From: Deltaproteobacteria bacterium
GTDB lineage: Bacteria; Myxococcota_A; UBA9042; CAIXZC01
Length of the DNA stretch: 64,000 nucleotides
Assembly: GCA_016875215.1 (NCBI GenBank)
Contig: VGRX01000001.1
Span: 11,312 to 75,311 of the forward strand
Reading direction: 5' to 3'
Shown: piece after piece, positions 778 to 57,355 of the stretch
Layout of the letters: every line of letters starts with the position of its first letter
Position numbering within the stretch: the first letter of the stretch is position 1
The notes under the pieces: generated by a model
What the model saw: only the letters and a program-made list of their open reading frames with translations
Database searches by the model: none
Told to the model about the DNA's origin: nothing
Translations under genes and position numbers: made by a program

Positions 778-914
778 CAGCTGGGTCGTCAGCCCCCCCT
801 CTCATCTTCGCGTTCGGGCAACAGCATGCGCGCTGTCCAGTTCGACTGGACGGCAAGGCTCAGGTATACTGCCGCCACCGTGCACCGGCACAAGCTGGTG
901 CACCCGGAGGTACC

Positions 915-3713
915 GTGTCACTTTCTCCTCTTGGAATCACCGTTCTGTGTGGCGTGCTCGTTCTCCTCGGGGGGTGCGGCTCTGAAAGCAACTGTCCGTT
1001 GCCCTCCTGCCAGGATGCGTCCCGTCAATGTCCCGACGCCGCCTCGTATCCTCCCGTGGGCAAGGATGCGCTGGAGCCCGACCTCCCCGGCGCCGATGCG
1101 ACAGGCATGGACGCCGCCCCGGAAACCGGTGCCGATGGACCGGCAATCGACGTTCCCCCGGCCTATCCCGCCCTCCGTCTGAACGAAATCAACTGCCATG
1201 GCAGAGACTGGATCGAGCTGGTCGGCGAATCGACTGCGGAGAGCGGCTTCCTGGCGGGATACGCAGTGACCGACGACCTCGACGACCCGGACGACCGCTT
1301 CTTCCTGGCCCCGGACGCGCTCCTGCTGCCGGGCGGCCGGTTGGTGCTTTCCCGCCAGACCGAGGATGAGGACGGCTTCCTGTTCGGAATCCGCTGCGGC
1401 CTGGACACGCTCTACCTCGTGGCACCGGACGAAAGCATCGCAGACGAGGTGAGCCCCGGGCTCGCCCCCGAAGGCCGGACCTGGGGACGCCTTCCCGATG
1501 CGACCGGAGGCTGGACCGTCACGGCCGCCACTCCGGGGGACCCGAACGAAGCGGGCCCCGACCTCGACGCCCTGGTCTTCAACATCGGTCGCGTGGCCAC
1601 CATCGACATCACCCTGCCGCCTTCTTCGGTGGACTCCCTGTGGAACGACCCGAGGACCTTCGTCCCGGGAACGTTCACATACCAGGCCGACGACTTCGAG
1701 TCGGGCGAGCTGCCGGTTGCGGTCCGAATCAAGGGGAAGTGGGGGTCGTTTCGCGACCTCAACGGCAAGGCGGCATTCCGGGTGCGCTTCAACTGGGACT
1801 CCCCCGAGGGCAACTTCCTCGGCCTCCAGAACCTGACCCTCAACAACATGGTCCAGGACCCGTCGATGATCCACGAGGTGCTGGCGTACCGCCTGTTCGA
1901 CGCGGTCGGGGTGAACGCACCCCGTACGGGCTATGCCTGGGTGCGGGTCAACGGCGCGGACTACGGCCTCTACCTCACGCTCGAGCGGTACGACGACGTG
2001 TTCCTGACCGGCCACTACCCTACGACGCAGCACCTCTACGAGGGGGAGTACGGAACCGACGTGGTCCCGGGCAACAGCACGGTGTTCGACGTCGACGAGG
2101 GAAGCGTGGAGGACCGGGAAGATCTCGAGACCCTGGCCGACGTGGCGTGGAACACCGAGGATTCCCACTGGATGTCAGCCATGGATGCAGTGGCCGACCT
2201 GGAACAGATGACCCGCATGTGGGCGGTCGAGCAGTTCATCGGCCACTGGGACGGCTACGCTCCTACCATCAACAACTACTTCCTCCACAGCGACGATGCC
2301 GGCCGGTTCGTCATGCTCCCCTGGGGAACGGACCAGACGTTTGCCGACTTCCGTGACTACTTCTCCGGCAGCGGCTACCTGTTCCAGCGCTGCATGGGCG
2401 TCGGCCAGTGCGGGTACACCTTCGTCATGGGTCTTGCACTGATCAGCGACGTGCTTCCCGGACTCGAGCTGGACAAGCTTGCGCAGGACCTGTCGGCATT
2501 GCTGGCACCCTATGCCGAGGCCGACCCGAGAAAGCCCTACTCGTTCGAGCAGGTGGGGCAGCACGTCGAGGCCACCCGGGATTTCCTGGTGAACCGCAAG
2601 ACCAACCTGGACGAGATCCTGGCCTGCTACCTGTCACCAGGCTATGACACGGACAACGACGGCTTCGGCTGCGGTGCCGACTGCAACGACATGGACCCGG
2701 ACATCCACCCTGGCGTGCCCGAGATCTGCGGCGACCAGGTCGACCAGGACTGCAACGGCTGGGTGGACGACGGCTACGACTGTCCCGATTGCAAAGAGGA
2801 GTACCGAGGGACTCACCGATATCTGATCTGTCCCGTCCCCCGGCCGCACTCCATGGCCGTCCAGCATTGCATCGACTATGGCAGTGCCCCCATCGTGCTC
2901 AACGACTTCACCGAGGAGCAATGGCTGCGCAGCCGCCTCCCGGCCTATCCGCTCGATACCCTCTGGCTCGGCCTGACCGACGAGGAAGAGGAAGGACACT
3001 TCGTATGGTGGGGCGGGCTCGAGCCGCCGTACGTGAGCTGGAACCCGGGCGAGCCCAACGACTGGGGTGGAGAGGATTGCGTCCAGCTCCTCGTGTGGGG
3101 CCAATGGAACGACCTGCCGTGCGATGCCGAGCTGCCGGTCGCGTGCGAGGACCCATGCCCTGAAGGGCTCGACATCGACGGCGACGGCTTCGGCCCTTGC
3201 GACCTCGACTGCGATGACGGGGATCCTACCGTGTATGCGTATGCACCCGAGATCTGCAATGATGGGATCGACCAGGATTGCTCCGGTGCGGACAACGACG
3301 CCCCCAACTGCCTGGGCGGCGACGCCAAACCGCTCCAGCCGATCATCAACGGCGACATCTTCTACTACCTGCCCGGCTCCATTTCCAGAGAGCTGGCCCG
3401 CCAGGTTTGCCAGACCCAGTTCTGGGGCGGGGATCTCGCCTGGTTCGAAACCAAGAAGGTCCAAGACCAGGTCCGGGCCGCGCTCGATGCGGTGGCACCG
3501 GGCAGCGAAGTGTGGTTCGGCCTCAACGATCTCGATGTCGAAGGGGCATACGTCTGGGCGGACGGCAAGCCAACGACCTACACCGACTGGGCCAATGGCC
3601 AGCCCAACAACAGCGGAGAGCAGGACTGCGTGCGCATGCTCGGCGACGGAAAGTGGAACGATACCGATTGCAAGAACCAGCATCCCGCAATCTGTCGGAC
3701 GGTGGCCCCGTGA
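915..3713 (+). CDS. secreted CotH kinase-family protein with lamin-tail-like domain, Cys-rich Asp-box motifs and two C-type lectin domains (lipoprotein)
   Basis: GTG 915 after GGAGG; signal/lipobox VLVLLGGCGS. The segment LNEINCHGRDWIELVG is LTD-like. The segment LQNLTLNNMVQDPSMIHEVLAYRLFDAVGVNAPRTGYAWVRVNGADYGLYLTLERYDDVFL matches the CotH family. WLGLTDEEEEGHFVWW...NPGEPNDWGGEDCVQL...CDAELPVACE and VWFGLNDLDVEGAYVWADGKPTTYTDWANGQPNNSGEQDCVRM are C-type lectin domains. The long ORF track start at 606 is rejected in favour of the signal-peptide start. Confidence 0.75.
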   Translation: MSLSPLGITVLCGVLVLLGGCGSESNCPLPSCQDASRQCPDAASYPPVGKDALEPDLPGADATGMDAAPETGADGPAIDVPPAYPALRLNEINCHGRDWIELVGESTAESGFLAGYAVTDDLDDPDDRFFLAPDALLLPGGRLVLSRQTEDEDGFLFGIRCGLDTLYLVAPDESIADEVSPGLAPEGRTWGRLPDATGGWTVTAATPGDPNEAGPDLDALVFNIGRVATIDITLPPSSVDSLWNDPRTFVPGTFTYQADDFESGELPVAVRIKGKWGSFRDLNGKAAFRVRFNWDSPEGNFLGLQNLTLNNMVQDPSMIHEVLAYRLFDAVGVNAPRTGYAWVRVNGADYGLYLTLERYDDVFLTGHYPTTQHLYEGEYGTDVVPGNSTVFDVDEGSVEDREDLETLADVAWNTEDSHWMSAMDAVADLEQMTRMWAVEQFIGHWDGYAPTINNYFLHSDDAGRFVMLPWGTDQTFADFRDYFSGSGYLFQRCMGVGQCGYTFVMGLALISDVLPGLELDKLAQDLSALLAPYAEADPRKPYSFEQVGQHVEATRDFLVNRKTNLDEILACYLSPGYDTDNDGFGCGADCNDMDPDIHPGVPEICGDQVDQDCNGWVDDGYDCPDCKEEYRGTHRYLICPVPRPHSMAVQHCIDYGSAPIVLNDFTEEQWLRSRLPAYPLDTLWLGLTDEEEEGHFVWWGGLEPPYVSWNPGEPNDWGGEDCVQLLVWGQWNDLPCDAELPVACEDPCPEGLDIDGDGFGPCDLDCDDGDPTVYAYAPEICNDGIDQDCSGADNDAPNCLGGDAKPLQPIINGDIFYYLPGSISRELARQVCQTQFWGGDLAWFETKKVQDQVRAALDAVAPGSEVWFGLNDLDVEGAYVWADGKPTTYTDWANGQPNNSGEQDCVRMLGDGKWNDTDCKNQHPAICRTVAP

Positions 3714-7535: not shown

Positions 7536-7570
7536 AACGGCCGCTGGTGCGGGGATGAAGACGTACCGTG

Positions 7571-7750
7571 GGTGCGGGCAACCCAACGGCCGATGCGCTT
7601 CCCGGGCCGTGAGTGGCGGACCAGCCCCGGGTTGGCCGGCAGGCCTACCCGGGGTGGAGCAGATGTGCCGCTGGTAAAGGAGGTAGATGGGCCGATGGTG
7701 CGGGCAACCCGACGGCCGATGCGGCGAGACTGACCGTGGGTGCGGGGGAC
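7571..7750 (+). repeat. REP/BIME-like cluster: two full plus one partial copy of the 26 bp unit GGTGCGGGCAACCCRACGGCCGATGC
   Basis: Copies at 7571-7596 and 7697-7722, partial at 7734-7750. The same unit recurs at 12.4, 18.3 and 52.9 kb. Confidence 0.65.
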
Positions 7751-10662: not shown

Positions 10663-11502
10663 TCACACCTCGAAGAGGTCGTGGAAAGCGGCGGGACCGT
10701 GGTCGGCCTCCAGACGGGGGGATGCCCGGCGATCGACCAGCTCGCCGCTCTCAAGCTTGGCGGATAGCACCTTCTTCATCGACTCGATCTCGCCATCGGT
10801 GTAGCGCCGGTCCTTTGCCGGCGTAGCTCCCTTCAGATTCATCACGCTTCCCTTCGCCCTGGTGTGCGACAGGCCGAAGAAGTGCCCGAATTCGTGAACC
10901 AGCGTGAACGGCCAGGCGATCGATGACACGATGATCCAGCGCTTGCGAACGTCCTTGCGCAGCCGCCAGTGCACCCCGTAGATCTCGCCGGCCTCGTCCA
11001 CGTTGTCCACCTTGCCCGGGACGAACACGTTGACCACTCCCTTGCGCCAGCGCTTCTCGCCCAGGCGGTCGCGGTCATCCTTCGATACCACGTGGTACTC
11101 CTCCAGCGGCAGGAATTCCACGCTGTCCAGCTCCAGAGCGATGCCCAGCGGCGCCAACCCCTCGTTCGCATGCGCCACCTGCTCCGCCACCCACTCCGGC
11201 TTCTGCACCGGGCCTGTGTCGTCGGTCCCCACGAACAGGGCGATGCCGAGGCAGACGACCTCCCCCTCCCGGCATCCGGGGACGGCCTCGACATAGGCCT
11301 CCCCGCTGAGCCCCGCAACCCCGCCCGCCAGCGCCTCCATCAACTGCACCTCGCCGCTGCCGGCCGGCTCCTCAGGCTGCGCAGACGGCTCAGGCTGCGC
11401 CTCGGCAGCGTCCTCGTGCGCCGCTTCAGCGGCCTTGACTGGCTCATCGGCTTGTTTTCCGGCTGCAACCGCTGCCAGCACCATCATCGCGACCAGGACC
11501 AT
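10663..11502 (-). CDS. secreted zinc metalloprotease, metzincin-type (HEFGHFFGLSH)
   Basis: Start at MVLVAMMVLAAVAAG (GGGGGAGG SD). Extended zinc-binding motif HExxHxxGxxH near the C-terminus. Confidence 0.7.
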   Translation of the reverse strand: MVLVAMMVLAAVAAGKQADEPVKAAEAAHEDAAEAQPEPSAQPEEPAGSGEVQLMEALAGGVAGLSGEAYVEAVPGCREGEVVCLGIALFVGTDDTGPVQKPEWVAEQVAHANEGLAPLGIALELDSVEFLPLEEYHVVSKDDRDRLGEKRWRKGVVNVFVPGKVDNVDEAGEIYGVHWRLRKDVRKRWIIVSSIAWPFTLVHEFGHFFGLSHTRAKGSVMNLKGATPAKDRRYTDGEIESMKKVLSAKLESGELVDRRASPRLEADHGPAAFHDLFEV

Positions 11503-11542: not shown

Positions 11543-11995
11543 CTACTCCCCCCCCACCATGCATAACCTGGGGAACCGCTTGCCGACCTTCTGCACCAGC
11601 CTCCCGTCCGCCGTGAACAGCGACACGTCCATCCACTCGGACAGGGCCAGATACTGGGCATCGTACGCGGACGGAAGCGCCAACTCCCGGCTCAGCACCA
11701 GGGCGCGATGCAGCAGCACCGGATCGTAGACAAGCTCCATGCCAAGCGCCAGGATGTCGTCCAGCGCCTTCTCCGAAGCAGCGGACGTCAACACCCGAGC
11801 CCGTTCCAGCTGGCGAAGAGCGTTGACACACTCGAAGGCCAGGAGAGACGGTGCCAGAACCCGGGTCTGCTCCTCGGTCCACTCCCGCCACAGGGCATGG
11901 ACAGCCTGCTCGCCCGCCCCCCCCACGACCAGCCTCATGACCAGACATGCATCCACGCAGACTGCGGAACTGGCGCTCACCATCTCCCTCCTCAT
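11543..11995 (-). CDS. vapC: type II toxin VapC (PIN domain)
   Basis: About 145 aa. VCVDACLVMRLV N-terminal PIN block and acidic residues spaced as in VapC. Lies immediately downstream of an antitoxin gene. Alternative start at 11983. Confidence 0.65.
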   Translation of the reverse strand: MRREMVSASSAVCVDACLVMRLVVGGAGEQAVHALWREWTEEQTRVLAPSLLAFECVNALRQLERARVLTSAASEKALDDILALGMELVYDPVLLHRALVLSRELALPSAYDAQYLALSEWMDVSLFTADGRLVQKVGKRFPRLCMVGGE

Positions 11996-12039
11996 GGCTC
12001 ATCCGGGACCGGCAACAGCCTGGAGGCGACGCACCAGAC

Positions 12040-12378
12040 TCAACTCAGGTTGTCCAGGAGCTGCTCGTCCCTGTCCCCACGTTCCCGACGAATGAGCTCG
12101 ACGACATCCGGCAGTGGCTTCCCCTTGCGCCTGCGGGCGATGCCCTTGCGAAGAGCCGCCAGCCTCTCCAGCGCATCCGCCCGGGTCGCATGGGCCCCGG
12201 CCGCGGCCAGCCGCTCGTAGCTCTCCATGGACAGGACGACCACCATGGGCTTGCCTCCCCGCTCCACGAAGACAGGCTCACTGCCCTCGACGGCCATGCG
12301 CATCACCTCTCCGAACCGGACCCTCGCCTCGGTCGCGCTGACCTTCCTGCCACCCATGCTTGCCCCCCAATCCATCAA
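12040..12378 (-). CDS. Phd/YefM-family antitoxin
   Basis: KVSATEARVRFGEVMRMAVEGSEPVFVERGGKPMVVVLSMESYERL is the typical Phd/YefM N-terminal fold. Paired with vapC. Confidence 0.65.
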   Translation of the reverse strand: MMDWGASMGGRKVSATEARVRFGEVMRMAVEGSEPVFVERGGKPMVVVLSMESYERLAAAGAHATRADALERLAALRKGIARRRKGKPLPDVVELIRRERGDRDEQLLDNLS

Positions 12379-12432: not shown

Positions 12433-12600
12433 GCGCGGATCGACATGTCGGGGTTCCATCCATGAGCCGTGGGTGCGGGCAACCCGACGGCCGATGCACC
12501 GAGACGGGCCGGCGGTGCGGGCAACCCGTGGGCCCACGCCATTGACAGGGCCGGCGGTGCGGGCAACCCAACGGCCGGCGAGGGTGCGGCGGGTCCGTCG
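12433..12600 (+). repeat. composite REP/BIME-like cluster A1 (leader cgacatgtcggggttccatccatgagcc plus three REP units)
   Basis: Near-identical architecture to 18272-18420. Confidence 0.65.
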
Positions 12601-18271: not shown

Positions 18272-18420
18272 CGACATGTCGGGGTTCCATCCATGAGCCG
18301 GCGGTGCGGGCAACCCGACGGCCGATGCGGCAGGACAGACCGTGGGTGCGGGCAACCCAACGGCTGATGCACCGAGACGGGCCGGCGGTGCGGGCAACCC
18401 GACGGCCGGCGAGGGTGCGG
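18272..18420 (+). repeat. composite REP/BIME-like cluster A2 (direct repeat of A1)
   Basis: The leader cgacatgtcggggttccatccatgagcc plus three REP units match 12433-12600. Confidence 0.65.
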
Positions 18421-21993: not shown

Positions 21994-24900
21994 CTATGGC
22001 GCCACGTACAGCCACAGATACCGGTTACCCCCGATGTTCTGGGCAAAGCAGTTGGAAGCTTCCCAGCCGCAACTGTTGTTGACGGTAACGTTGGTGCTGC
22101 TTTCGCCGCACCCCCACGGGCCACCCCACCAGCTCGAGGAGGTGTGGGGGTGATTTCCGTCCGCGTAGATTTCGTTGATCCAGCCGGAGAAGTTCGAGTT
22201 GTAGATGAGCCCGTTGACCTGGTAGGCCCCGAGCCCGTCCCTGAACACGTTCTTGTTCACGTCGAGATAGCGGTAGCTGTTCGTATTCGCTCCGCAGACG
22301 ATCCGGATCTTGTTGTAGGCCGCTCCCGTGCAGTCATTGCCCCAGGCCTTTGGGATGTCGTCGCCGCCTGGCTTGTCCAGGTAGCCCTCGCACTGAATCC
22401 AGGCCCCTCCGAAGACCGGCCCGAGCTCACCGGAGAAGCCGGGCACGGTCGGCGTCGTGAGGGTGCAGTTCGGCTCGCAGCCGTCTCCGGCCACGGCGTT
22501 TCCATCGTCGCAAGCTTCGCCGGCCTCGACCTTGCCGTTCCCACAGCACGGGGTGAAGGGGGTGTACTTGCACCCAGTGGCCGGGTCGCAGCTGTCGGTC
22601 GTGCACTTGTCGCCATCGATGCAGGTCACGGCCGGTCCCGGTTTGCACGCGCCCCCGCCGCAGACGTCACCCGCGGTGCATGCGCTGCCGTCGTTGCAGG
22701 CCGCTGTATTGGGGGCGTACGCGCAGCCGGTCTTCGGGTCGCATGAATCGTCGGTGCAGCCGTTCCCGTCGTTGCAGGCGAGGTTGCCGGACCCGGTGCA
22801 TTTGCCATCTCCGCACGCGTCCGTCACGGTGCATGCGTTGCCGTCATTGCAGGGGACCGTGTTGTTGGCGTGCTTGCACCCGGTCTTGGGCTCGCAGGTA
22901 TCCGTGGTGCACACGTTTGAGTCATCACAGCTCACCCAGGCCGTCCCGACGCAGGTTCCGTCCTGGCAGGTATCACCCGTTGTGCACGCGTTCTTGTCAT
23001 CGCAACCACCTGCGACCGGCGTGTGGGTGCACCCTGCCTTGGGATCGCAGGCATCGGTGGTGCAGGAGTTGGCATCGTCGCAGCTCAGCCACTGGGCGGG
23101 CTTGCAGCCGCCGGCCGTGCACTTGTCACCGACGGTGCAGATGTCACCGTCGTCGCAGGGGGCCGAATTGAGCGTGTGAATGCACCCCTTTGCCGGATCG
23201 CACGAGTCGTCCGTGCACGGGGTGTCATCACCGCACGGCAGGGTTCCGGTCCCAACGCACTTGCCCGCACTGCATGTGTCCGTGGGAGTACACTTGTTGC
23301 CGTCGTCGCACGCAGCGGTATTGGGCGTGTGCGTGCACCCTCCCTTGGGATCGCAGGCATCCGTGGTGCACGGGTTCCCGTCGTCACAGCCGAGGGCCGG
23401 TCCTCCCTTGCACTGTCCGGCCACACAGGCATCGGGCCCTGTGCACGGGTTCCCGTCGTTGCACGGGGCCGTGTTCTCCAGGTGGATGCACCCCTTGGCG
23501 GGGTCGCACGAGTCGTCGGTGCAGACGTTGGAATCGCCGCACTCAAGCGCCACGCTGCCCTTGCACGCCCCGCCCTTGCACAGGTCCGACTTGGTGCACA
23601 CGTTCCCGTCGTCGCAGGATGCAGCGTTGTGATTGTGCACGCACCCAAGATCGGGATCGCACGAGTCGTCGGTGCACACGTTCCCGTCATCGCAAGGCAG
23701 CAGGGACGAGCCCTGGCACAGCCCGCTCTTGCACGCGTCCCCGGTCGAGCACTTGTTCCCGTCGTTGCACGGGACCTGATTGAACACGAACTTGCAGCCG
23801 AGCACGGGCTCACACGAGTCGTCGGTGCACACATTCCCGTCGTTGCACGACTGCACCCCTGTCGCCACGCAGGCCCCAAGCTTGCACTGGTCGCCGGTCG
23901 TACACTCGTTCGAGTCGCTGCACGGAAGCTGGTTGGGCTGGTGCACGCACCCTTTGAGCGGCTCGCACGAATCGTCGGTGCACGGATTGCCGTCATTGCA
24001 ATCCTGCGCTTTTCCCGACGCGCAGCTTCCCCCTCCGCACTGGTCCCCCACGGTACACGGGTTGCCATCCTCGCACGCTGCCGTGTTGGGAGCGAACTTG
24101 CACCCGGTCGCTGCATCGCAGGAGTCGTCCGTGCAGGGATTCCCGTCGTTGCAGTTGACCGGCTTGCCTCCGGCGCAGGTCCCGTCGGCGCACGTCTCCG
24201 AATGGGTGCAGGCGCTGCCGTCGCTGCAGGCCTTCCCCTCGGCAGCCGGGACGAACGAGCATTCCCCGGTCAGCGGATTGCACGAAGGAGCCAGGCACTC
24301 CGCCCCCACTCCCTTGGGCGCGGCGCACTCCACGACCGTCTTGAGGTCCACGATGCACTTGTGAGGGAGCTGCTTCGTGTCGCACACGAGCTTGCCGTTG
24401 CAGACGTCACCGTCCTCCAGCACCAGACAGTCGGCAGTGGTCTTGCAGTCGCAGGCGACAGGGTAGCCCCCACACTTGCCCTGGCTGCACACGTCGCTGA
24501 CCGTGCATGGGTCGCCGTCATCGCAATCCGCCTTGTTGAACGAGTACTTGCACCCGCCCGTCGGATCGCACTCGTCCGTGGTGCAGACGTTGCTGTCGTT
24601 GCAGTTGATGCCTGTCCCGAGGCATTCGCCCGACTCACAGTGGTCGGCCAGCGTGCAAACGTCGCCGTCGTCGCATGACGTCCCCGAAAGCGGCTCGTGC
24701 ACGCATCCCGCTTCAGGATCGCATTCGTCCTTCGTGCATCCATTCCCATCATCGCACGAGACGTCGTCCACCTTGTCGTTGCAGTCGTCGTCGACGCCGT
24801 TGCACTCCTCCGCCTGCGGTTCCGGAGCATCGCACGCGGACAAGCCGTCCGGACCGCACGTCCGCTCCCCCTGGCACTGCCCGAGGTCGTTCGCCGCCAG

Positions 24901-25542
24901 GCACAGCGTGGAAAGACCCAGTGCGATCGACTTCGTCGAGCACGAGCAGACCCCGCTGTCGGACACGCACTGCTTCAGCACCGTGCCTTCCGCAGTCACG
25001 GCATCCTTGCACGAGAAACCGAAGGGGCATGCGCCGTTGCACGGCGCCCCGCAGAACAGCCCTGCCGCACCATAGTCCACGCATACGTCCTCCAGGCCGT
25101 TGGGGGACTTGCAGTCCGCACTCGTCTTGCACGGCCGGCACAGGTGGGTGTACGGCGACACGCATGCGAACTGCAGATCCGGTCCGCCCGTCGAGATCTG
25201 CTGGCAGGTCCACCCTTGCGGACACTCCTCGACGCAGGTATCGGAGCACACGTTGTCCCCCATGTGCTCCACGCAGATGCCGGACAGGCAGTCCTTGCCG
25301 TCCGCGCACGGTTCCAGGAAGCACCCCGTTCCGGGCACGCATCCGGAACCCGTGTCGAGCCATTCCTCGACCGTCACGTCCGGGGGCTCGACCGAGGTCT
25401 CCGCCTGGTCGACGCCCACCGTCTCCACCACGGACTCAGCCTGCGCCTGGTCACTCGTGTCCTCCCCGCCGGTCACTACGGTGCCGCCGCCGGCACAGGA
25501 CGCCACAACTCCGCTCACCGCCAGAATCCACAGTCGCCTCAT
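21994..25542 (-). CDS. giant secreted Cys-rich repeat protein A (1182 aa): EGF-like N-terminal module, about 25 CxDGNxCTxDxCDPxxGC repeats, CCGNG Cys-rich repeat, unique about 230 aa C-terminal domain
   Basis: Signal peptide MRRLWILAVSGVVASCAGG. Highly regular about 38 aa repeats. Paralogue of 37748-41590. Confidence 0.8.
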   Translation of the reverse strand: MRRLWILAVSGVVASCAGGGTVVTGGEDTSDQAQAESVVETVGVDQAETSVEPPDVTVEEWLDTGSGCVPGTGCFLEPCADGKDCLSGICVEHMGDNVCSDTCVEECPQGWTCQQISTGGPDLQFACVSPYTHLCRPCKTSADCKSPNGLEDVCVDYGAAGLFCGAPCNGACPFGFSCKDAVTAEGTVLKQCVSDSGVCSCSTKSIALGLSTLCLAANDLGQCQGERTCGPDGLSACDAPEPQAEECNGVDDDCNDKVDDVSCDDGNGCTKDECDPEAGCVHEPLSGTSCDDGDVCTLADHCESGECLGTGINCNDSNVCTTDECDPTGGCKYSFNKADCDDGDPCTVSDVCSQGKCGGYPVACDCKTTADCLVLEDGDVCNGKLVCDTKQLPHKCIVDLKTVVECAAPKGVGAECLAPSCNPLTGECSFVPAAEGKACSDGSACTHSETCADGTCAGGKPVNCNDGNPCTDDSCDAATGCKFAPNTAACEDGNPCTVGDQCGGGSCASGKAQDCNDGNPCTDDSCEPLKGCVHQPNQLPCSDSNECTTGDQCKLGACVATGVQSCNDGNVCTDDSCEPVLGCKFVFNQVPCNDGNKCSTGDACKSGLCQGSSLLPCDDGNVCTDDSCDPDLGCVHNHNAASCDDGNVCTKSDLCKGGACKGSVALECGDSNVCTDDSCDPAKGCIHLENTAPCNDGNPCTGPDACVAGQCKGGPALGCDDGNPCTTDACDPKGGCTHTPNTAACDDGNKCTPTDTCSAGKCVGTGTLPCGDDTPCTDDSCDPAKGCIHTLNSAPCDDGDICTVGDKCTAGGCKPAQWLSCDDANSCTTDACDPKAGCTHTPVAGGCDDKNACTTGDTCQDGTCVGTAWVSCDDSNVCTTDTCEPKTGCKHANNTVPCNDGNACTVTDACGDGKCTGSGNLACNDGNGCTDDSCDPKTGCAYAPNTAACNDGSACTAGDVCGGGACKPGPAVTCIDGDKCTTDSCDPATGCKYTPFTPCCGNGKVEAGEACDDGNAVAGDGCEPNCTLTTPTVPGFSGELGPVFGGAWIQCEGYLDKPGGDDIPKAWGNDCTGAAYNKIRIVCGANTNSYRYLDVNKNVFRDGLGAYQVNGLIYNSNFSGWINEIYADGNHPHTSSSWWGGPWGCGESSTNVTVNNSCGWEASNCFAQNIGGNRYLWLYVAP

Positions 25543-50504: not shown

Positions 50505-51431
50505 ATGGAGCAGACCATGCGTTCGGACATCACCATCGAGAACGGCAAGGCTTACCACATCGGGGTCGCTCCCCACGAGATCGCTCCACGCATATTCCAG
50601 GTGGGAGATCCGGCACGGGCGTTCAAGGTGGCGGACCGGTTCGACCGGGTGGACTTCGAGTGCAGGAACCGCGAGTACGTGACCCTCACCGGTACCCTGG
50701 CCGGCAAGCCGGTCTCGGTCATGGGGACGGGCATCGGCCACGACAACGTGGAAATCGCGTTGCTCGAGGCCTACACGTTGCTGGCCTTCGACCTGTCCAC
50801 GGCAACCCGCAAGACCCGGGTGCCGGAAATCACGGTGATCCGGATCGGCACGTCCGGAGGGGCGCAACCCGACGTCGAGCCCGGCACGATGGGCATCACG
50901 TCCTACGCCATCGGGCTGGACACCACCGGCATCTACTGGGACGTGCCTGTGCCGGACCAGACGGCAGGCAAGCTGGAGATCGTGGCAAAGAGACTCCTGG
51001 ATGATGCCACGGTCCCGGGCTCCCGCTTTGCCGGATGGGTCCGTCCGTACGCCTCCCGCGCCACACCGGAGATGGTGCGCCTGCTGGAGCACTCGGCCCG
51101 CGAGGCCGCTCCCCGCTTCCCCCTCGTGACCGGAGTCACCGTGGCGGCGCCGGGCTTCTATGGTGCCTCGGGACGCCGCATGGAGGGTCTGTCCCTCTCG
51201 GTCCCGGGCATCAAGGAAGTGTGCGCCGGAATCGAGGCCGACGGCCACCGGGTCGTGAACTTCGAGATGGAATCGAGCCTCATCTTCCACCTGGCCCAGG
51301 GCCTCGGCTGGCGGGCCGGAACAGTCTGCCCCATCATCTCGAACCCGAAGCGCCAGGGAAAGGTGATGGACTACCGCCCATGCGTCGAGGCAGCGATCGA
51401 CATTGCGGTGCGGGCCATGGAGCTCGTGTAG
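50505..51431 (+). CDS. PNP/UDP-type nucleoside phosphorylase-family protein
   Basis: VGDPARA...GKPVSVMGTGIGHDN...VIRIGTSGG blocks characteristic of the PNP_UDP_1 family. Confidence 0.6.
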   Translation: MEQTMRSDITIENGKAYHIGVAPHEIAPRIFQVGDPARAFKVADRFDRVDFECRNREYVTLTGTLAGKPVSVMGTGIGHDNVEIALLEAYTLLAFDLSTATRKTRVPEITVIRIGTSGGAQPDVEPGTMGITSYAIGLDTTGIYWDVPVPDQTAGKLEIVAKRLLDDATVPGSRFAGWVRPYASRATPEMVRLLEHSAREAAPRFPLVTGVTVAAPGFYGASGRRMEGLSLSVPGIKEVCAGIEADGHRVVNFEMESSLIFHLAQGLGWRAGTVCPIISNPKRQGKVMDYRPCVEAAIDIAVRAMELV

Positions 51432-51523
51432 GGTTGATGCCGGGCGGGAGAGCTGATGCTCCAGCTCGTCGTCAGAAGTCCTGTGCGCACGGAAGCACAT
51501 CGGGATCGTCGGGTACACGTGCG

Positions 51524-51640
51524 ACAGCGTCCGCAGCCGCGGCGGCAAGACCGAGATCGACCTGGTCGTGCGCAGCCGCAGGAGGACAGCCTTCATCGAG
51601 TGCAAGTGGCGGGCGGAAACGACGGTTCCGTCGAGTGTTA
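51524..51640 (+). pseudogene. duplicated 3'-fragment of the DUF234-type ATPase gene (copy of 54644-54765)
   Basis: About 98% identical over about 110 nt (GKTEIDLVVRSRRRTAFIECKWRAETTVPSS). Truncated and joined to the upstream block of the next gene. Confidence 0.6.
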
Positions 51641-51683
51641 CGACTTGCCGGTCGGCCCCATCCCCCCGCACGCGACATTCCGC

Positions 51684-51710
51684 TTGACTACTTGAAAATT
51701 TCACGATAAT
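51684..51710 (+). promoter_or_regulatory. strong sigma-70-like promoter (TTGACT ... GATAAT) ending 9 nt before the ATG; probable leaderless or near-leaderless transcript
   Basis: ttgactacttgaaaatttcacgataat. A related block precedes the gene at 53525. Confidence 0.45.
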
Positions 51711-51718
51711 CTCAGGTC

Positions 51719-52867
51719 ATGATTGCGAGAGGACTCCGACTTCCGAAGGCAGGCACCGAGACGTTCTTCCTCTGGGGACCGCGGCAGACCGGCAAGTCCA
51801 CGTTGCTTCGGGCGGCTTACCCGCAGGCGCTCTGGATCGACCTGCTCAAGTCCGACGAGTTCCGCCGTTACATGGAGCGGCCCGAGTTGCTTCGACAGGA
51901 AGTCGCTGCGATGCCAGTTCCTCCCCTCGTCGTCATCGACGAGGTGCAGAAGGTCCCCCTCCTTCTCGATGAGGTCCACTGGCTTCACGAGAACCGGGGC
52001 ATGCAGTTCGCCCTGTGCGGCTCGAGCGCCCGCAAGGTGAAGCGCGGCCAGGCGAACCTGCTCGGGGGAAGGGCCATCCGGTACCAACTCCTCGGTCTCA
52101 CTTCCGCTGAGTTGGGGAACGACTGGGATCTTGTACGGATGCTCAACCACGGATACTTGCCGCGGATCCATCTTTCGGACCGGCCAGAGCACCTTCTCAA
52201 GTCGTACGTCGCGGACTACCTCAAGGAGGAGATCGCAGCAGAGGGATTGGTGCGGAAGCTCCCGGTCTTCTCACACTTCCTGGACGTGGCGGCGCTGTCG
52301 GATTGCGAGCCGGTCAACTTCTCGACAATAGCGCGTGATTGCGGCGTGTCCAGCCAGTCTATCAAAGGGTATTTCGACGTGCTGACGGACACCCTCCTGG
52401 GTGTCTGGCTGCCCTCCTATCGCCGCCGCCCGAAGCGACGTGTCCTGGCATCGCCGAAGTTCTACTTCTCCGATGTCGGAGTGGTGAACTTCCTGGCTCG
52501 GCGGGGACAAAAGGAGCCAGGCTCCGAGCTGTTCGGCAAGGCGTTTGAAAACTGGGTCCGGCACGAGCTTGCCGCCTACAACGAATATGCACAGCGCAAC
52601 GCATCGCTCAGCTACTGGCGCCTCACGACCGGTGCCGAAGTGGACTTTGTCGTGAACGACATGGAAGTCGCTGTCGAAGCCAAGGCCACCCGGCGCGTAA
52701 CCAGCGACCACCTCAAGGGGTTGCGACAGCTCAAGGCGGACCATCCGAAGGTCCGCCGGCGGATCGTCGTGTCCCTCGAGGACAAGCCCCTGCTGACCCC
52801 GGACAAGATCGACGTGATGCCCGCTGCCGAGTTCAGCTGCCGGCTCTGGGGGGGCGAGCTGTTCTGA
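51719..52867 (+). CDS. AAA-family ATPase (AAA_14 plus DUF4143 type)
   Basis: Walker A GPRQTGKST; hhhhDE Walker B VVIDEVQ. C-terminal DUF4143-like region. Confidence 0.75.
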   Translation: MIARGLRLPKAGTETFFLWGPRQTGKSTLLRAAYPQALWIDLLKSDEFRRYMERPELLRQEVAAMPVPPLVVIDEVQKVPLLLDEVHWLHENRGMQFALCGSSARKVKRGQANLLGGRAIRYQLLGLTSAELGNDWDLVRMLNHGYLPRIHLSDRPEHLLKSYVADYLKEEIAAEGLVRKLPVFSHFLDVAALSDCEPVNFSTIARDCGVSSQSIKGYFDVLTDTLLGVWLPSYRRRPKRRVLASPKFYFSDVGVVNFLARRGQKEPGSELFGKAFENWVRHELAAYNEYAQRNASLSYWRLTTGAEVDFVVNDMEVAVEAKATRRVTSDHLKGLRQLKADHPKVRRRIVVSLEDKPLLTPDKIDVMPAAEFSCRLWGGELF

Positions 52868-52887
52868 GCGCCCGGCGCGGCAGCAAG

Positions 52888-52953
52888 TGCCGGCAACCCG
52901 ACGGCCGATGCGGCGAGACGGGCAGTTGGTGCGAGCAACCTGACGGCCGATGC
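52888..52953 (+). repeat. REP/BIME-like pair (two units of the GGTGCGGGCAACCCGACGGCCGATGC family)
   Basis: Copies at 52888-52912 and 52928-52953. Confidence 0.6.
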
Positions 52954-53524
52954 GCTTGAGGCGGCTCCGTCAGATTGGCTGCGCTGTGCGCCAGCAGATC
53001 TGTGGCCGCGGGCAATGCCGTACTTGGCTTCCCCCGCTGGGGGAGGATGCCCGGAGGCCCAGGCCTCCGGGCAGGAGGGGGGCTGATAGCTTCCCCAGAT
53101 TCGTGGGCCGACCAGTGACGGTGATTCGGGCGAAACTAGCAGCCCCCCCGCTGCGCCAGCCTCCGCCACGGCGTTGGCGTGGCTTGCTGCCCCCCGGAGT
53201 GGGGCTCCAAGCACGGCAGTGAGAATCCCCGTGACCTGACAGGCGCACAGTGCAGCCGATGCGCCCTCCAGGCGTTCTGCGGCGGCACATCGGGGGCCCG
53301 CGCCCACGGTCGTGCCGACGCCAGGGCCGTCAGGGATCCCGCACCAACGTCAGAAGGCTACCTTGATACGACTTGGCCCTCCGCCCCTTCTTCCCCGATG
53401 GCTACCTTGTGACGACTTGCCGGTCGGGCATTCCCCACTGGCCGCTGCCACGAAGCCAGACGCACCGGTTCTGCTGGCTGCGATTCAACTTGACTTTGGG
53501 CAAGTTGATGTCACGATAGCAGAC

Positions 53525-54979
53525 ATGAGACCGTTCGTGAACCGAACCGCCGAAGTTTCCGCACTGCGCCGCCGGCTCGCAGCCAGGAGATCGTTCGTCC
53601 TCCTGTACGGGCAGCGCAGGACCGGCAAGACATGGCTCCTCCAGCATGTCCTGGAGGGAGACGGTGATTGCCTCTTCTTCACTGCGGACGAGACCACGCC
53701 GAGGATGCTGCTCGAACGTTTCGTAGTCCTGGCGGCTGCCCAGAACCGGCTGCCGGGACAGGTGACACCGTCCGCTGTCGGGGACTGGGGGACGGCGCTG
53801 ACCCTCCTGCTGCAAGAGGCTGTGCTCCGGAAGCGCCGGCTGGTGATCGCTCTGGACGAGTGCCAGTACCTTCTCGACCGGGAGCCGTCGTTCCCTTCGG
53901 TGCTCCAGCGCCTCTGGGACGAGTTCAGACCACGCCTCTCCCTGCACATCGTCCTGTGCGGCTCGGCTCTTGGCACCATGGCACGCCTGGGCGATAGCCG
54001 GCAGCCGCTCCACGGGCGGTTCGACCTGAAGCTGCAGCTCCGGCCCTTTTCCTATGCGGATGCCGGACTGTTCGTTCCCTCGTGGTCTCCGGTGGACAGG
54101 CTCCGGCTCTACGGGATCTTCGGCGGTCTGGCGAGGCACCTGGCCTACGTGGATCCCGGATGCGATCTGGCTTCCAACCTGTGCCAGGTCGTTCTTGATC
54201 CGCTGTCCCCTCTGCACGATGCTCCGCACGACATCCTGCGAACCGAGAGGCTCTCGGCCCCAGCAGAAGCCGATGCCATCCTGGGGGCGATGGCACACGG
54301 TGAAAACCGCTTCAACGCCATTGCGGCACGCACCGGGCTTGCGGCCCCCCGCCTGGACCGCGTCTTGAGCGAGCTGCAGTCTCTGGACATCGTGCGCAAG
54401 GAGGCCCGGATTGGAGACAGCGACGGTTCCCGCTATGTGCGGTACCGATGCGCCGACCCCTTCATGCAGTTCTGGTTCCGCCTCGTCGAGGGAAACCGGA
54501 CTGCCCTGCAATCCACGCCGGCAGCGCGAGTGTACCAGGAGCGTATTCTCCCGCAGCTCGACACCTGCATGGGCAGTGTCTTCGAGTCGATCGTGGAGCA
54601 GGCCGTGCGGCGTGGCGTGCTTTCCGCTCACATGGATCCCGTCGACGAAGTCGGCTCGTACTGGAGCCGCGACGGCAAGACCGAGATCGACCTGGTCGTG
54701 CGCAGCCGCAGGAGGACAGCCTTCATCGAGTGCAGGTGGCGGGCGGAAACGACGGTTCCGTCGAGTGCGTTGTCGCAGCTTCGCGAGCACGCGGCCCGCA
54801 CCCCGTTTGCTGCGCAGGAGGCAATCTACTGCATCGCCTCCGCAGGCAGCTTCTCGAAGGGGCTGCGCCAGTGCGCCGGCGAAGGCAAGGTCGTTCTCAT
54901 AGGGCTGCCCGAGTTGACAGGGCTCCCCGGCACCGAGGCCCGAGACAACATGGGGCCCATGGTTAAGACCTGGTCCTGA
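53525..54979 (+). CDS. ATPase (Arch_ATPase/AAA plus DUF234 type)
   Basis: Start MRPFVNRTAEV. Walker A GQRRTGKT; Walker B LVIALDECQ. C-terminal DUF234-like segment. Confidence 0.7.
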   Translation: MRPFVNRTAEVSALRRRLAARRSFVLLYGQRRTGKTWLLQHVLEGDGDCLFFTADETTPRMLLERFVVLAAAQNRLPGQVTPSAVGDWGTALTLLLQEAVLRKRRLVIALDECQYLLDREPSFPSVLQRLWDEFRPRLSLHIVLCGSALGTMARLGDSRQPLHGRFDLKLQLRPFSYADAGLFVPSWSPVDRLRLYGIFGGLARHLAYVDPGCDLASNLCQVVLDPLSPLHDAPHDILRTERLSAPAEADAILGAMAHGENRFNAIAARTGLAAPRLDRVLSELQSLDIVRKEARIGDSDGSRYVRYRCADPFMQFWFRLVEGNRTALQSTPAARVYQERILPQLDTCMGSVFESIVEQAVRRGVLSAHMDPVDEVGSYWSRDGKTEIDLVVRSRRRTAFIECRWRAETTVPSSALSQLREHAARTPFAAQEAIYCIASAGSFSKGLRQCAGEGKVVLIGLPELTGLPGTEARDNMGPMVKTWS

Positions 54980-55009
54980 ATCCGGCCCAAGTCATCATAT
55001 GCGGCCCGC

Positions 55010-55363
55010 TCAGGCAGTTCCCCGCTTCCGGCCCAGTACAGCGTCCAGCTCACGAAGAACTCTGGCAAGCAGCGCGGGTTTGACCGCACCGAACGAGCGC
55101 AGCACCAGGGTGCGGCTCAGGCTGTAGACCTTGTCGGCACGGACCACGCTGTCCGCTTTCAGGCGACCGCTTGCGAGATCCTTCTGGCGCAGTGGAACCG
55201 CATGGGCTCGTTCTTCAAGATTGGACGTGACCGCCATTCCCAGGAAATCCGGGGAACCGCTGTTGTATGCGTCGCACGAGATGACCAGGACGGGCCTCGT
55301 CTTCTCTGACCTGAGGTTTGAAAACGGAAACGGAATGAGCACGATGGTACCCTGGTCAGGCAT
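55010..55363 (-). CDS. mazF: type II toxin MazF/PemK family endoribonuclease
   Basis: GTIVLIPFPFSNLRSEKTRPVLVIS ... is the classic PemK/MazF fold. Confidence 0.8.
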   Translation of the reverse strand: MPDQGTIVLIPFPFSNLRSEKTRPVLVISCDAYNSGSPDFLGMAVTSNLEERAHAVPLRQKDLASGRLKADSVVRADKVYSLSRTLVLRSFGAVKPALLARVLRELDAVLGRKRGTA

Positions 55364-55592
55364 CGTTCCATACCTCGTCGTCTACCGGGTTGTCCCAGAA
55401 GGCGAGGCTGCTCTCTGCTGCCTTGAGCAGGTCGTCCCCAGGGGGAACATCGCTGTCCAGCCGTTTCGCCAGGCCGTCGAGGACGTAGTCTCCCAGGCTC
55501 ATGTCCCTCTTGGCGGCGGCCACACGCAGCCGCCGCTTGATTTCCGTCGACACGTAGATCGTCAGGCGGGTCTTCTGCGCCGGTTCGCTCAT
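55356..55592 (-). CDS. antitoxin (RHH/MazE-like) overlapping mazF
   Basis: 79 aa, MSEPAQKTRLTIYVSTEIKRRLRVAAAKRDMSLGDYV ribbon-helix-helix. 8 nt overlap with the toxin gene. Confidence 0.6.
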   Translation of the reverse strand: MSEPAQKTRLTIYVSTEIKRRLRVAAAKRDMSLGDYVLDGLAKRLDSDVPPGDDLLKAAESSLAFWDNPVDDEVWNDA

Positions 55593-55666
55593 TTCCGTCA
55601 CCTCCTGCACAAGAATGACAATAGCAACCTGGTGACATGTTGTCAACGGGTCGACGGTCCGTCCCC

Positions 55667-57355
55667 CTACATCCCCCCCGACTTCCGTATCCCCAGCACG
55701 ACCCACAGGGCCACCAGGAACGACGCGGCAAGGCTGGCGGAGGAGAGCCATTCGGGGAACCGGTCGCTGCCTCCCATCCACATGGACGCGGCGACCCCTG
55801 CGCCGGCAAGAACCGCAGCGGCCAGTCGGTTGATGGAAGCGGCCTTCTCGTGAGCCGCAACGAGGGTGTTCTCGTCCTCCACCTTGATCGTCAGGTCACC
55901 GTCGCGTACGCGGCGGACGAGCTGGCTCAGCTCCTTGGGGAACGTACGGCCGAACGACAGCCAGTCGAGCGCCACGTCGACGATCTGGGACGAGTGCTGC
56001 GTCGGGTCGAGCGCACGGTTAAGGAACAGCGAGATGAGATAGGGTTGCACCGCGGCCAGCGGCTCGAATTCGGGGTAGATCTGCCGTGCGAGCCCCTCCA
56101 TGGTCCCGAGCGCCCGCCCCACCATGAGCAGGTCCGACGGCAGCGAGACCTTGTGCCTGTACATCACCTCGACCGACGTCCGGATCAGCTCGTCAAGCCG
56201 GAGCGCTCCGATGCTCAAGGTCGAGAACCGGTCCATCATGATCTCGGCATCGCGCCGGAGGCTGCGGATGTCGGCCGAGGCCGGCACCAGCCCGGCTTCG
56301 TGCAGGCTGTCCACCAGCATCCCGGAGTCGTTCGAAACCAGCGCCACCATGAAGGAGAGCATCTCCTCCATGCGCGCCTCGCTGATGTACCCCATCATCC
56401 CGAAATCGAGCAGGCAGACCTTGCCATCCTCCGCTATGAGGAAGTTCCCCGGATGGGGATCGGCATGATAGAACCTGAACTCGAACACGGACCGCAGCAG
56501 CAGCCTCGTCCCGATCTCCGAGATCTCCTTGGGGCTGAGCGGGAAGATGGTCCAGTCCGTCACGGCGGTGACCTTGGTCCCCTTGAGGAACTCCATCACG
56601 ATGAGGTTCTCGGTGCACAGGTCGTCGAACGTCCTGGGAATCCGGACGTTGGGCTCGCCGACCAGACACGCGGCGAAGCGCTCCATGTTGCGCACTTCGT
56701 TGCGCAGGTCCATCTCCTGGGTGAACGTGCGGGCGAACTCGTCCACGAGCTGCCGGGGGTGCATGTGCTCCACCCCGTCGAAGTTCTCCTCGATGTACCC
56801 GGCGATGTCCCTCAGCACGGCCAGGTCGTCGCGCACCACCTTCTCGAGGCCGGGGCGCTTGACCTTCACCACCACGTCCTCCCCGCTGATCAGCCGGGCT
56901 CGGTGCACCTGTGCGATGGAGGCAGCGGCCAGCGGCTGCCGCTCGATGTCCGCGAACACGTCCCCGGGCACCTGCTTCAGCTCCTGGGCCAGGATTGCCT
57001 CGACCATTTCGAAGGGAAAGGGCGGTACCTGGTCCTGCAGGCGCGCAAGCTCCCGGATCACCTCCGGCGGGAGCAGATCCGGGCGGTTGGCCAGGACCTG
57101 TCCGAACTTGATGAACGTCGGCCCCAGCTGCTCGCACGCGGCTCGAAGCCTGGCCCCGAACGAGGGGGTCGCCCGCTCCTGCCACCGACCCAACGAGACT
57201 GCGCGGCGCACCCCCTTCCAAAGCCGCGACAGACCCGTGCGGGTCGCGACGTCGGCGAACCCGTGCCTCGCCAACACTCCTGCGATGTCCCGATACCGCC
57301 GGAACTTCTTGTAGGACCTCTGCAGCAGGAAGAACCGGTACAGGGAGGAGCTCAT
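55667..57355 (-). CDS. ABC1/UbiB-family atypical kinase
   Basis: Full-length similarity to AarF/ABC1 kinases (ASIAQVH, HADPHPGN motifs). C-terminal TM helices. Confidence 0.8.
   Translation of the reverse strand: MSSSLYRFFLLQRSYKKFRRYRDIAGVLARHGFADVATRTGLSRLWKGVRRAVSLGRWQERATPSFGARLRAACEQLGPTFIKFGQVLANRPDLLPPEVIRELARLQDQVPPFPFEMVEAILAQELKQVPGDVFADIERQPLAAASIAQVHRARLISGEDVVVKVKRPGLEKVVRDDLAVLRDIAGYIEENFDGVEHMHPRQLVDEFARTFTQEMDLRNEVRNMERFAACLVGEPNVRIPRTFDDLCTENLIVMEFLKGTKVTAVTDWTIFPLSPKEISEIGTRLLLRSVFEFRFYHADPHPGNFLIAEDGKVCLLDFGMMGYISEARMEEMLSFMVALVSNDSGMLVDSLHEAGLVPASADIRSLRRDAEIMMDRFSTLSIGALRLDELIRTSVEVMYRHKVSLPSDLLMVGRALGTMEGLARQIYPEFEPLAAVQPYLISLFLNRALDPTQHSSQIVDVALDWLSFGRTFPKELSQLVRRVRDGDLTIKVEDENTLVAAHEKAASINRLAAAVLAGAGVAASMWMGGSDRFPEWLSSASLAASFLVALWVVLGIRKSGGM

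Follow-up and report, generated by a model that had tools for sequence, protein, structure and literature searches.

The DNA analysed here, called the window throughout, is a stretch of 64,000 nucleotides (nt) from the chromosome of an uncultured Myxococcota-type bacterium, taken from a metagenome-assembled genome (MAG) that is labelled 'Deltaproteobacteria bacterium' and carries FJ109_ locus tags. Our subject is a variable hotspot at 51432-55666, between a nucleoside phosphorylase gene (PNP) and ubiB. In the window it holds a DUF4143 ATPase gene, a DUF234 ATPase gene, and a MazEF toxin-antitoxin (TA) module (Table 1), and short direct repeats, here called blocks, stand at its junctions. The island proteins were identified as MBM4352212-17 by exact look-up. 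To the right of the island, ubiB/ABC1 is followed by rpoA and secY of the ribosomal-protein cluster, and the gene to the left was recognized as a PNP_UDP_1 phosphorylase with Pfam. The G+C content is uniform at ~65 %, and the flanks are ordinary chromosome. No rRNA, tRNA, or tmRNA gene is present in the window. Rfam gave no matches over the window at gathering thresholds, and permissive searches of the island returned chance-level matches only.

The two ATPases had been described in an initial annotation, made from the sequence alone, as orphans of the DUF4143 and DUF234 types. The types agree with Pfam, in which the first protein matched AAA_14 (E=1.8e-16) and DUF4143 (E=2.3e-28) and the second matched ATPase_2 (E=1.3e-13) and DUF234 (E=5.8e-15). 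They are not orphans, since they match PADLOC families: the DUF4143 protein matched the hidden Markov model (HMM) of PDC-S01 (PDLC04790, E=1.3e-51) and the DUF234 protein that of PDC-S27 (PDLC04984, E=1.1e-33). Judged by these profiles, both belong to known candidate defence families of AAA+ ATPases that have a PD-(D/E)xK nuclease fused to them. Both PDC-S01 and PDC-S27 consist of ATPase domains fused to PD-(D/E)XK nucleases, and PDC-S01 ranks fourth in frequency among the (candidate) defence systems of prokaryotes, its experimental validation pending (PMC12988326). DUF234/COG1672 and DUF4143/COG1373 are among the listed PD-(D/E)XK families (PMC3424549). The translation of the DUF4143 gene contains a Walker A P-loop, GPRQTGKS, and a C-terminal PD-(D/E)xK-type motif, ..EVDFVV..VEAK... 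This protein of 382 amino acids (aa), DUF4143(382), has more than 7000 homologues at E<=1e-80; among the 120 matches listed, nearly all were 382 aa long and ~70 % identical, they bore names from several phyla, and many were on very short contigs of 1-3 kb. The closest relative of the DUF234 protein, P0001, is 91 % identical.

The block was traced to ribosomal RNA. The exact 16-mer ACGACTTGCCGGTCGG is found on the plus strand of the window only at 51640 and 53412, and GGCTACCTTGNNACGACTTG, for which chance would give 0.02 matches, is found at 53356 and again 44 nt further on, at 53400; the latter pair bears out a further partial copy that the initial annotation had reported. The block corresponds, in reverse complement, to nt 1492-1519 at the 3' end of 16S rRNA. 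Read on the minus strand, the window block agrees with Escherichia coli rrsH (L005; AAGTCGTAACAAGGTAACCGTAGGGGAA) at 24 of 28 positions, and a copy in a related locus, L002, agrees at 26 of 28. When the block was aligned with gaps to a GGTAGCC-type 16S, the similarity continued with indels into helices 44 and 45, and none of 200 shuffles aligned as well. This alignment firmly establishes that the block originated from a 16S gene or rRNA. The initial annotation had missed this identity, and the 'gccggtc' that it singled out corresponds to GACYGGC...AAGTCG of 16S. Perfect copies of GGCTACCTTGTTACGACTT are present in relatives; this sequence is the site at which the universal primer 1492R (TACGGYTACCTTGTTACGACTT) binds.

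We compared 13 block copies from the window, L001, L002, L008, L010, L011, and L012. The mean majority fraction was 0.97 in a 19-nt core and 0.56-0.62 in the flanks, with a sharp boundary between them, and the core was perfect in 8 of the 13 copies. The flanks are decayed helix-44 and helix-45 sequence. On this comparison the core has been maintained, selectively or concertedly, and the flanks have decayed.

The block is rare and lineage-restricted. The comparison set comprised ~9 block loci, all from one lineage. Six of these abut a DUF234 or DUF4143 gene, and within each locus all copies have the same orientation. A single block lies 28 nt past the PNP stop codon in L008, L009, and L010, the last of which is a nearly empty site. 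Tandem units of 44 nt are found in the window (two units), L011 (three), and L002 (one and a half), and units of 74 nt in L008 (three) and L012 (two). The cyclase cassette of L008 is bracketed by direct repeats of the block and ~35 nt. As these alignments show, the block brackets cassettes, singly or in 44- or 74-nt arrays, and it is present even at the almost empty site. Two block arrays were found on one contig of the LaPlata MAG, and the only species-representative genome with the block and its TTYCRGTG flank was a MAG labelled 'uncultured Myxococcales bacterium'. No block was found in L003/L004 (the context of a 70 % DUF234 homologue), in L145/L146, or in more distant PNP contexts, and the annotated phage and plasmid collections contained no match to the arrays or the island. 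The block was also considered as a phage or plasmid attachment (att) site and rejected, as pattern scans of IMG/VR gave just true or mosaic 16S fragments, or nothing. A text-based, limited literature search found no att site or repeat derived from the 16S end, which is weak evidence of novelty for an unexpected element.

Some observations on the block concern assembly and chance. Two Logan contigs, L133 (14248-14276) and L134 (11271-11299), stop 10 nt past the core, and the end of L001 and the start of L002 are likewise at or within a few nt of a block. This is what one would expect of a repeat that also sits in every rRNA operon; a block identical to the 1492R site thus breaks metagenome assemblies and could cause mis-joins. 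A viral contig (L006, IMG/VR UViG_3300033170_000395) opens at 1-300 with a 16S mosaic in which ~nt 680-800 is joined to ~nt 1430-1512; the mosaic stops at ...AAGTCGTAACAAGGTAGCCGCAGG and unrelated DNA follows. Either the assembly is chimeric at this start, or an element has become joined to a 16S 3' end. Within the window, the block flank GACTTGCCGGTC (51642-51653) is an exact 12-nt reverse complement of the Walker A codons GACCGGCAAGTC of the DUF4143 gene (51787-51798), and there is a similar near-match for the DUF234 gene (53416-53436 against 53609-53629). The flank was considered as an inverted remnant of an ATPase gene, with 'G..PTGKS' (GxxxxGKS) on the minus strand, but there is no open reading frame (ORF). 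The match is probably a coincidence of the 16S-derived AAGTC with GKS codons.

The content between PNP and ubiB differs among relatives. The nearly empty L010 reads PNP, block, one unannotated 302-aa ORF, then ubiB-rplQ-rpoA. Compared with the post-block sequence of L008, L010 has an insert of ~170 nt at 10986-11156 that is flanked by ..CCCCGGCAG / ..GGGGGGCAG; the 302-aa ORF contains this insert, matches no family, and may be spurious. In L008/L009, PNP is followed by a block, the cyclase gene, the array of three 74-nt units, and other genes (a 283-aa gene, a giant DUF4062-WD40 gene, and DUF4143(382)). This DUF4143(382) gene has 86 % nucleotide identity to that of the window, and the homology is limited to window positions 51683-52875, that is, promoter and ORF. 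In L012 and the P0098 contig, PNP is accompanied by a CarboxypepD_reg gene, a 209-aa gene, and, on the opposite strand, DUF4143(417); in L012 the two block units stand between PNP and the DUF4143 gene. The PNP genes of the block-bearing lineages have 78-86 % nucleotide identity, and more distant PNP orthologues (73-74 % amino acid identity) have unrelated neighbours.

A second hotspot is seen in L001/L002, with the order NACHT gene (minus strand), small ribbon-helix-helix (RHH)-like gene (minus strand), DUF234(459), block, DUF234(470), block, DUF4143(433). In L011, an array of three 44-nt units is followed by DUF234(459) alone, beside genes for a GFO oxidoreductase, a sigma-54 activator, and a TIR protein. 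Joining L011 and L012 into one contiguous region was tried and could not be demonstrated. The two hotspots share a segment made up of block, P2 (the region ahead of the DUF234 gene), and DUF234 gene, in which window 53381-54935 corresponds to L002 36-1588 at 91.6 % identity. Its left limit is 19 nt ahead of the core of block unit b, and its right limit in L002 falls 10 nt short of the following block. The genes beside blocks are only 28-30 % identical to each other and are therefore different cassettes that share a junction sequence. These comparisons support the reading of the locus as a variable hotspot made of cassettes.

The initial annotation had also reported a copy of the 3' end of the DUF234 gene in front of the DUF4143 gene. 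The copy was recovered: by repeat finder and alignment, F' and its counterpart F in the DUF234 ORF form a direct repeat of 103 nt that is 98 % identical, with two mismatches (51542 and 51605), and the segment thus aligns at the nucleotide level on recomputation. It is not the extreme 3' end, however, but an internal segment that stands 212 nt ahead of the stop codon. F comprises codons 381-414, 'SRDGKTEIDLVVRSRRRTAFIECRW', with the D...E.K core of the PD-(D/E)xK nuclease domain. In the frame of F' there is no start codon between the preceding stop codon and the fragment, and F' is therefore a pseudogene fragment. The sequence directly 3' of it is ...TGTTACGACTTGCCGGTCGG, and, as reported before, it abuts the same block as the DUF234 gene, with the exact 16-mer at both places. 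This junction is also present in L144, an independent assembly from another metagenome that is 98.9 % identical over window positions 51056-53211, and it is therefore not an assembly artefact. The spacer between PNP and F' (51432-51534) showed no significant similarity to any segment compared. A resemblance to PNP-downstream or spacer segments of relatives had been judged by eye and was then found not to be significant.

Block 1 (AGTGTTACGACTTGCCGGTCGGCCCCATCCCCC), which follows F', is significantly similar to the L002 block right after the DUF234(470) stop codon (AGCGTTGCGACTTGGCCCTCGGCCCCCCCCC), with none of 300 shuffles as good. The order in the window, DUF234 3' region, block, and next ATPase cassette, thus mirrors that of L002. 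Missing from F' are the last ~220 nt of the gene and all that lies 5' of codon 381. On the simplest and most likely reading, F' and the truncated block are the scar of a deleted second DUF234 cassette that formerly stood ahead of the DUF4143 gene. This cassette would have been lost through two microhomology-type deletions, the right-hand one ending inside the block, where there is a 'TG' microhomology (GAGTG before TTACGACTT compared with CCTTG before TTACGACTT). F' is 98 % identical to the resident DUF234 gene and 91 % to the L002 orthologue, and the duplicated copy is thus recent. The fragment is most likely an ordinary scar. Such a nearby non-coding copy, near-identical to a part of the gene not far from its 3' end, might also recall the template and variable repeats of a diversity-generating retroelement. 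Of the two mismatches, however, one has A in F and the other A in F', so that no adenine-specific direction is seen, and none of the island ORFs, all of which were checked, encodes a reverse transcriptase. The retroelement reading was rejected on the mismatch pattern, and we give it next to no credence.

Table 1. Features of the island and its borders in the window
Feature	Position	Strand	Remarks
PNP_UDP_1 nucleoside/uridine phosphorylase (PNP)	50505..51431	+	Pfam E=1.3e-23; left flank; orthologues flank L008, L009, L010, L012
Spacer	51432..51534		103 nt, PNP stop to F'; origin not matched to compared segments; place of the intact block in relatives
F'	51535..51637	+	DUF234-gene pseudogene fragment; nuclease-core codons; non-coding at its site
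Block 1	51636..51667	+	Truncated 16S-like repeat, TGTTACGACTT plus GCCGGTCGGCCCCATCCCCCC
P1	51684..51718	+	Promoter-like; TTGACT-17 nt-TAATCT (or 15 nt-GATAAT), no more than 2 nt ahead of ATG; DUF4143 gene
AAA_14 + DUF4143 ATPase with PD-(D/E)xK domain	51719..52867	+	382 aa; MBM4352213.1; PADLOC PDC-S01
REP-like repeat	52879..52954	+	Two 42-nt units (..GCAACCCGACGGCCGATGCG..)
MITE-like insertion	52971..53268		~298 nt; 19-nt terminal inverted repeats I6, 52974-52992 / 53242-53260
Block unit a	53356..53399	+	44 nt; core GGCTACCTTGATACGACTT
Block unit b	53400..53443	+	Core GGCTACCTTGTGACGACTT plus GCCGGTCGGG; helix-44-like flank
P2	53486..53524	+	Promoter/operator-like; palindrome over TTGACT; CACGATAG 5 nt ahead of ATG; DUF234 gene
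ATPase_2 + winged helix-turn-helix + DUF234 ATPase with PD-(D/E)xK domain	53525..54979	+	484 aa; MBM4352214.1; PADLOC PDC-S27
F	54665..54767	+	Source-type copy within DUF234 ORF
PemK/MazF-family toxin	55010..55363	-	Pfam PemK_toxin E=5.5e-16; MBM4352215.1
Small antitoxin	55356..55592	-	78 aa; RHH_10 E=0.0023, below curated cut-off; 8-nt overlap with mazF start
TA-operon promoter, sigma-70-like	55618..55646	-	TTGACA-17-TATTGT, extended -10; consensus scan
ABC1/UbiB kinase	55667..57355	-	Pfam E=1.3e-69; right flank; adjoins hotspot in L010

Taken together, we consider it fairly probable that the locus is a small, fast-turnover island of one-gene cassettes in which the 16S-derived direct repeats at the junctions are the sites of gain, loss, and movement. 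The island would be built from self-contained cassettes, namely a PDC-S01-type gene, a PDC-S27-type gene, and a MazEF module, and each ATPase cassette would have its own promoter tight against the start codon. Excision, duplication, and re-insertion of cassettes would take place at the direct repeats as substrates, either by general or short-homology recombination or by a recombinase encoded elsewhere. The initial annotation had likewise proposed recombinational shuffling of cassettes. The variable content between PNP and ubiB and the presence of a DUF234 cassette in the second hotspot are in line with this proposal, but the role of the repeats in recombination is inferred.

Several points weigh against such a role for the repeats. 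No integrase, transposase, or other recombinase was found in a Pfam scan of the window's longer ORFs of gene-like codon composition, most of which it covered, nor among the genes beside the arrays in L008, L010, L011, and L012. Several endpoints are imprecise or outside blocks, such as the left end of F' and the place in L001/L002 where most of the GFO gene has been lost. There is no significant block after the DUF234 gene of the window, and a decayed block seen there by eye was not significant. In the window itself the cores carry mutations or are cut short, and the core that goes with the DUF234 gene has diverged between the window and L001 at about the neutral rate, so that constraint on the core is not universal. 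Much of the pattern could be accounted for by illegitimate recombination alone. There are only ~9 loci from a single lineage, and true 16S genes dominated the search of metagenomes for the core: among the matches listed, they made up 113 of 120 (L089, from the same scan, looks organellar). Nor is a defence role established for PDC-S01 and PDC-S27, both of which are candidate systems, and when a representative of each was assayed in E. coli B, neither protected against T4, T5, or T7 (bioRxiv 10.1101/2024.09.26.614923).

Much of this would be expected if the block were a neutral relic, either a decaying 16S 3' end or rRNA-derived repair filler, that is passively copied and has no part in rearrangement, while the island changes solely through ordinary illegitimate recombination and horizontal transfer. 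Such a relic would have flanks like decayed helix 44/45 with indels and mutated or truncated cores as in the window, and neither the lack of a recombinase in the scanned ORFs nor the many imprecise endpoints would be surprising. However, the core has stayed perfect in most copies across lineages with diverged PNP genes, next to bases that are conserved at ~60 %, and it is specifically at cassette junctions that blocks are seen again and again, in two hotspots and also as tandem arrays. Moreover, the window has no 16S gene. We therefore regard the relic as unlikely and prefer a part for the junction repeats in cassette turnover. A stronger version of that part is tentative: the 16S-derived 19-mer might be a dedicated, selected site, either the crossover or target of an unseen cassette-exchange system or a sequence with a nucleic-acid-level role together with the PD-(D/E)xK ATPases. 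In the latter case it may, with its match to the decoding-centre sequence of the ribosome, be a target, a decoy, or a guide-like element.

The regions ahead of the two ATPase genes bear on what constitutes a cassette. The initial annotation had proposed a shared TTGACT...cacGATA promoter. TTGACT and CACGATA do precede both start codons, and the end of TTGACT is 29 nt from ATG in each, but the gap between the two motifs is 12 nt in P1 and 16 nt in P2, and CACGATA is 10 and 6 nt from ATG, respectively. Outside 'ATnTCACGATA' they show no significant similarity to each other (67 of 1000 shuffles as good), so that a common origin was not supported. A consensus promoter scan called neither P1 nor P2. 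From these alignments, P1 and P2 are evidently not a shared module, and each is conserved with its own gene.

P1 (TTGACT...CACGATAAT...ATG) is kept with the DUF4143(382) gene at 86 % identity in L008 and 73 % in L145/L146. The homology to these loci begins in or just 5' of the TTGAC hexamer (window 51683, 51684). In L145, where the gene lies between aconitase and moeA, it extends exactly from the TTGAC hexamer to the stop codon. The gene moves as a minimal unit from the -35 hexamer to the stop codon (window 51684-52867, L145 5966-7149, L146, L008 18759-19951), and the -35 hexamer of P1 always ends 29 nt ahead of ATG (window, L008, L145). The DUF4143 promoter of L145 has its own palindrome, ACTTGAAA...TTTCAAGT. 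In P1, the -35 hexamer is followed by 17 nt, a -10-like hexamer, 6 nt, and ATG, with no Shine-Dalgarno sequence. Leaderless initiation is plausible from this geometry, which is conserved in L008 and L145. For P2 the case appears weaker, because the best -10 candidate, GATAGC, is too near ATG. P2 is identical in L001 and L002 and contains a perfect 7-bp palindrome, CAACTTG-N8-CAAGTTG, that overlaps TTGACT (window 53486-53507, L003 4189-4210). A 35-nt core of P2 is 83 % conserved ahead of the 70 % DUF234 homologue in the unrelated context of L003, where a leader of ~85 nt with a GGGAG motif separates it from the start codon. Since the palindrome is kept upstream of this homologue in an unrelated context, it is predicted to be operator-like.

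These regions also bear on two other conceivable functions of the block. It might consist of iterons, that is, binding sites through which the winged-helix/nuclease ATPases regulate their own genes or home selfishly, in keeping with the six loci that abut a DUF234 or DUF4143 gene, the tandem direct repeats at 44- or 74-bp spacing, and a templated patch of nuclease gene at a broken block. Yet the DUF4143(382) cassette is block-free in L008, L145, and L146, as is the 70 % DUF234 homologue in L003, and each promoter has its own palindrome that is unrelated to the block, which makes iterons quite improbable. Alternatively, the block might function as RNA, with a transcript antisense to the decoding centre and helix 45 of 16S or, from the other strand, a 16S mimic. 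It could then serve as a regulator, as a decoy (of, for instance, rRNases of the MazF or colicin E3 type), or, like ToxI, as a repeat antitoxin to the adjacent nuclease-ATPases. The complementarity to a universally conserved stretch of rRNA is perfect, tandem repeats lie directly 5' of ATPase genes in L011, L002, and the window, and a mazF gene is nearby. On the other hand, the blocks are upstream of the predicted promoters, block regions did not fold better than shuffles on either strand (z -0.1 to -1.4), and no Rfam match was found. Arrays also occur away from ATPase genes and 3' of one, and other block-bearing loci lack MazEF. An RNA-level function is thus highly improbable.

The MazEF pair that the initial annotation had placed at 55.0-55.6 kb was confirmed, with a PemK toxin recognized by Pfam and a small overlapping antitoxin gene. 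Neither L010 nor L008 has the pair. A region made up of the promoter and 5' part of the MazE-like antitoxin gene (55588-55662) is 89 % conserved at L001 1975-2049, where it precedes a different small RHH-like ORF beside DUF234(459), and the TA regulatory region seems to move between modules. A second type II TA pair, a PIN toxin with a Phd/YefM antitoxin, is encoded on the minus strand at 11543-12378, beside one of the arrays of a repetitive extragenic palindromic (REP)-like family. The ~42-nt units of this family (..GGTGCGGGCAACCCGACGGCCGATGCG..) are dispersed, often tandem, and always on the plus strand in the window, with arrays at 7560-7745, 12443-12600, and 18290-18420 besides that in the island, and at L002 3230-3310. 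Individual copies stand at 7578, 7704, 12479, and 18310-18413, and also in L002, and two arrays are preceded by the same 'cgacatgtcggggttccatccatgagcc' segment. The miniature inverted-repeat transposable element (MITE)-like insertion of the island, of which the window has one copy, is bounded by the termini ATTGGCTGCGCTGTGCGCC / GGCGCACAGTGCAGCCGAT and encloses a 32-nt hairpin; it is missing from the homologous spacer of L002 (3320-3362). Elsewhere in the window, 606-3713 and 21994-25542 encode two large predicted proteins, each in keeping with a myxobacterial-type genome. CotH kinase, MopE metal-binding, and C-type lectin domains were recognized in one of them, and in the other the Dictyostelium-type CTDC repeat matched 11 stretches.

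Defence islands are familiar, as are integration hotspots, and their boundaries are normally explained by integron attC sites or by the att sites of integrases, which lie in tRNA or protein genes. In the present case, defence-type cassettes of one gene each, in two hotspots, are set apart by a repeat that was copied from 16S rRNA at its universally conserved end. If the repeat is a recombination substrate, it would be a new kind of cassette address and a handle on how the abundant and unexplained PDC-S01 and PDC-S27 genes move. If the 19-mer is moreover a dedicated site, defence cassettes would be swappable between hotspots, and possibly between distant hosts, with one of the most conserved sequences in biology used as the address.

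Among known systems, the islands that integrases form at tRNA or tmRNA genes, and the staphylococcal cassette chromosome (SCC) at rlmH, also have cassettes bracketed by direct repeats, from the 3' end of a stable-RNA gene in the former. In the present case the repeat has 19-28 nt of identity to 16S nt 1492-1519 and lies on both sides of the L008 cyclase cassette, and the 'empty' site with a repeat right after a conserved gene and the multi-repeat arrays are further likenesses. Unlike these systems, the window has a repeat from 16S rRNA and not from a tRNA, many junctions are imprecise, a phosphorylase gene instead of an intact target RNA gene stands at the array, and no integrase or Ccr-type recombinase was found. 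Integrons, among which sedentary chromosomal ones hold defence cassettes too, resemble the island in their one-gene cassettes separated by a recurring short site, with the same cassette in different arrays. However, no intI or attI was found in the scanned window ORFs or beside the arrays of L008, L010, L011, and L012, the core GGCTACCTTGTTACGACTT lacks the RYYYAAC/GTTRRRY cores and shows no attC fold (by the z values above), and the island cassettes have their own promoters and lie on both strands (L008, L012). From diversity-generating retroelements the island differs in the opposite directions of its mismatches and in its genes, none of which has a reverse transcriptase domain. The TA pair is like a MazEF (PemK) type II system in its PemK toxin, its overlapping upstream small antitoxin gene, and its strong sigma-70-like promoter; it differs in that the antitoxin is weakly RHH-like and that the pair is one more variable cassette. 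Finally, the ATPases resemble PDC-S01 (COG1373) and PDC-S27 (COG1672) in their strong HMM matches, in their ATPase plus PD-(D/E)xK architecture, and in their defence-type neighbours (MazEF in the window; NACHT, TIR, and DUF4062-WD40 in relatives). The proteins themselves are not distinguishable from these families, and it is the repeats at the cassette junctions that lie outside the family definition.

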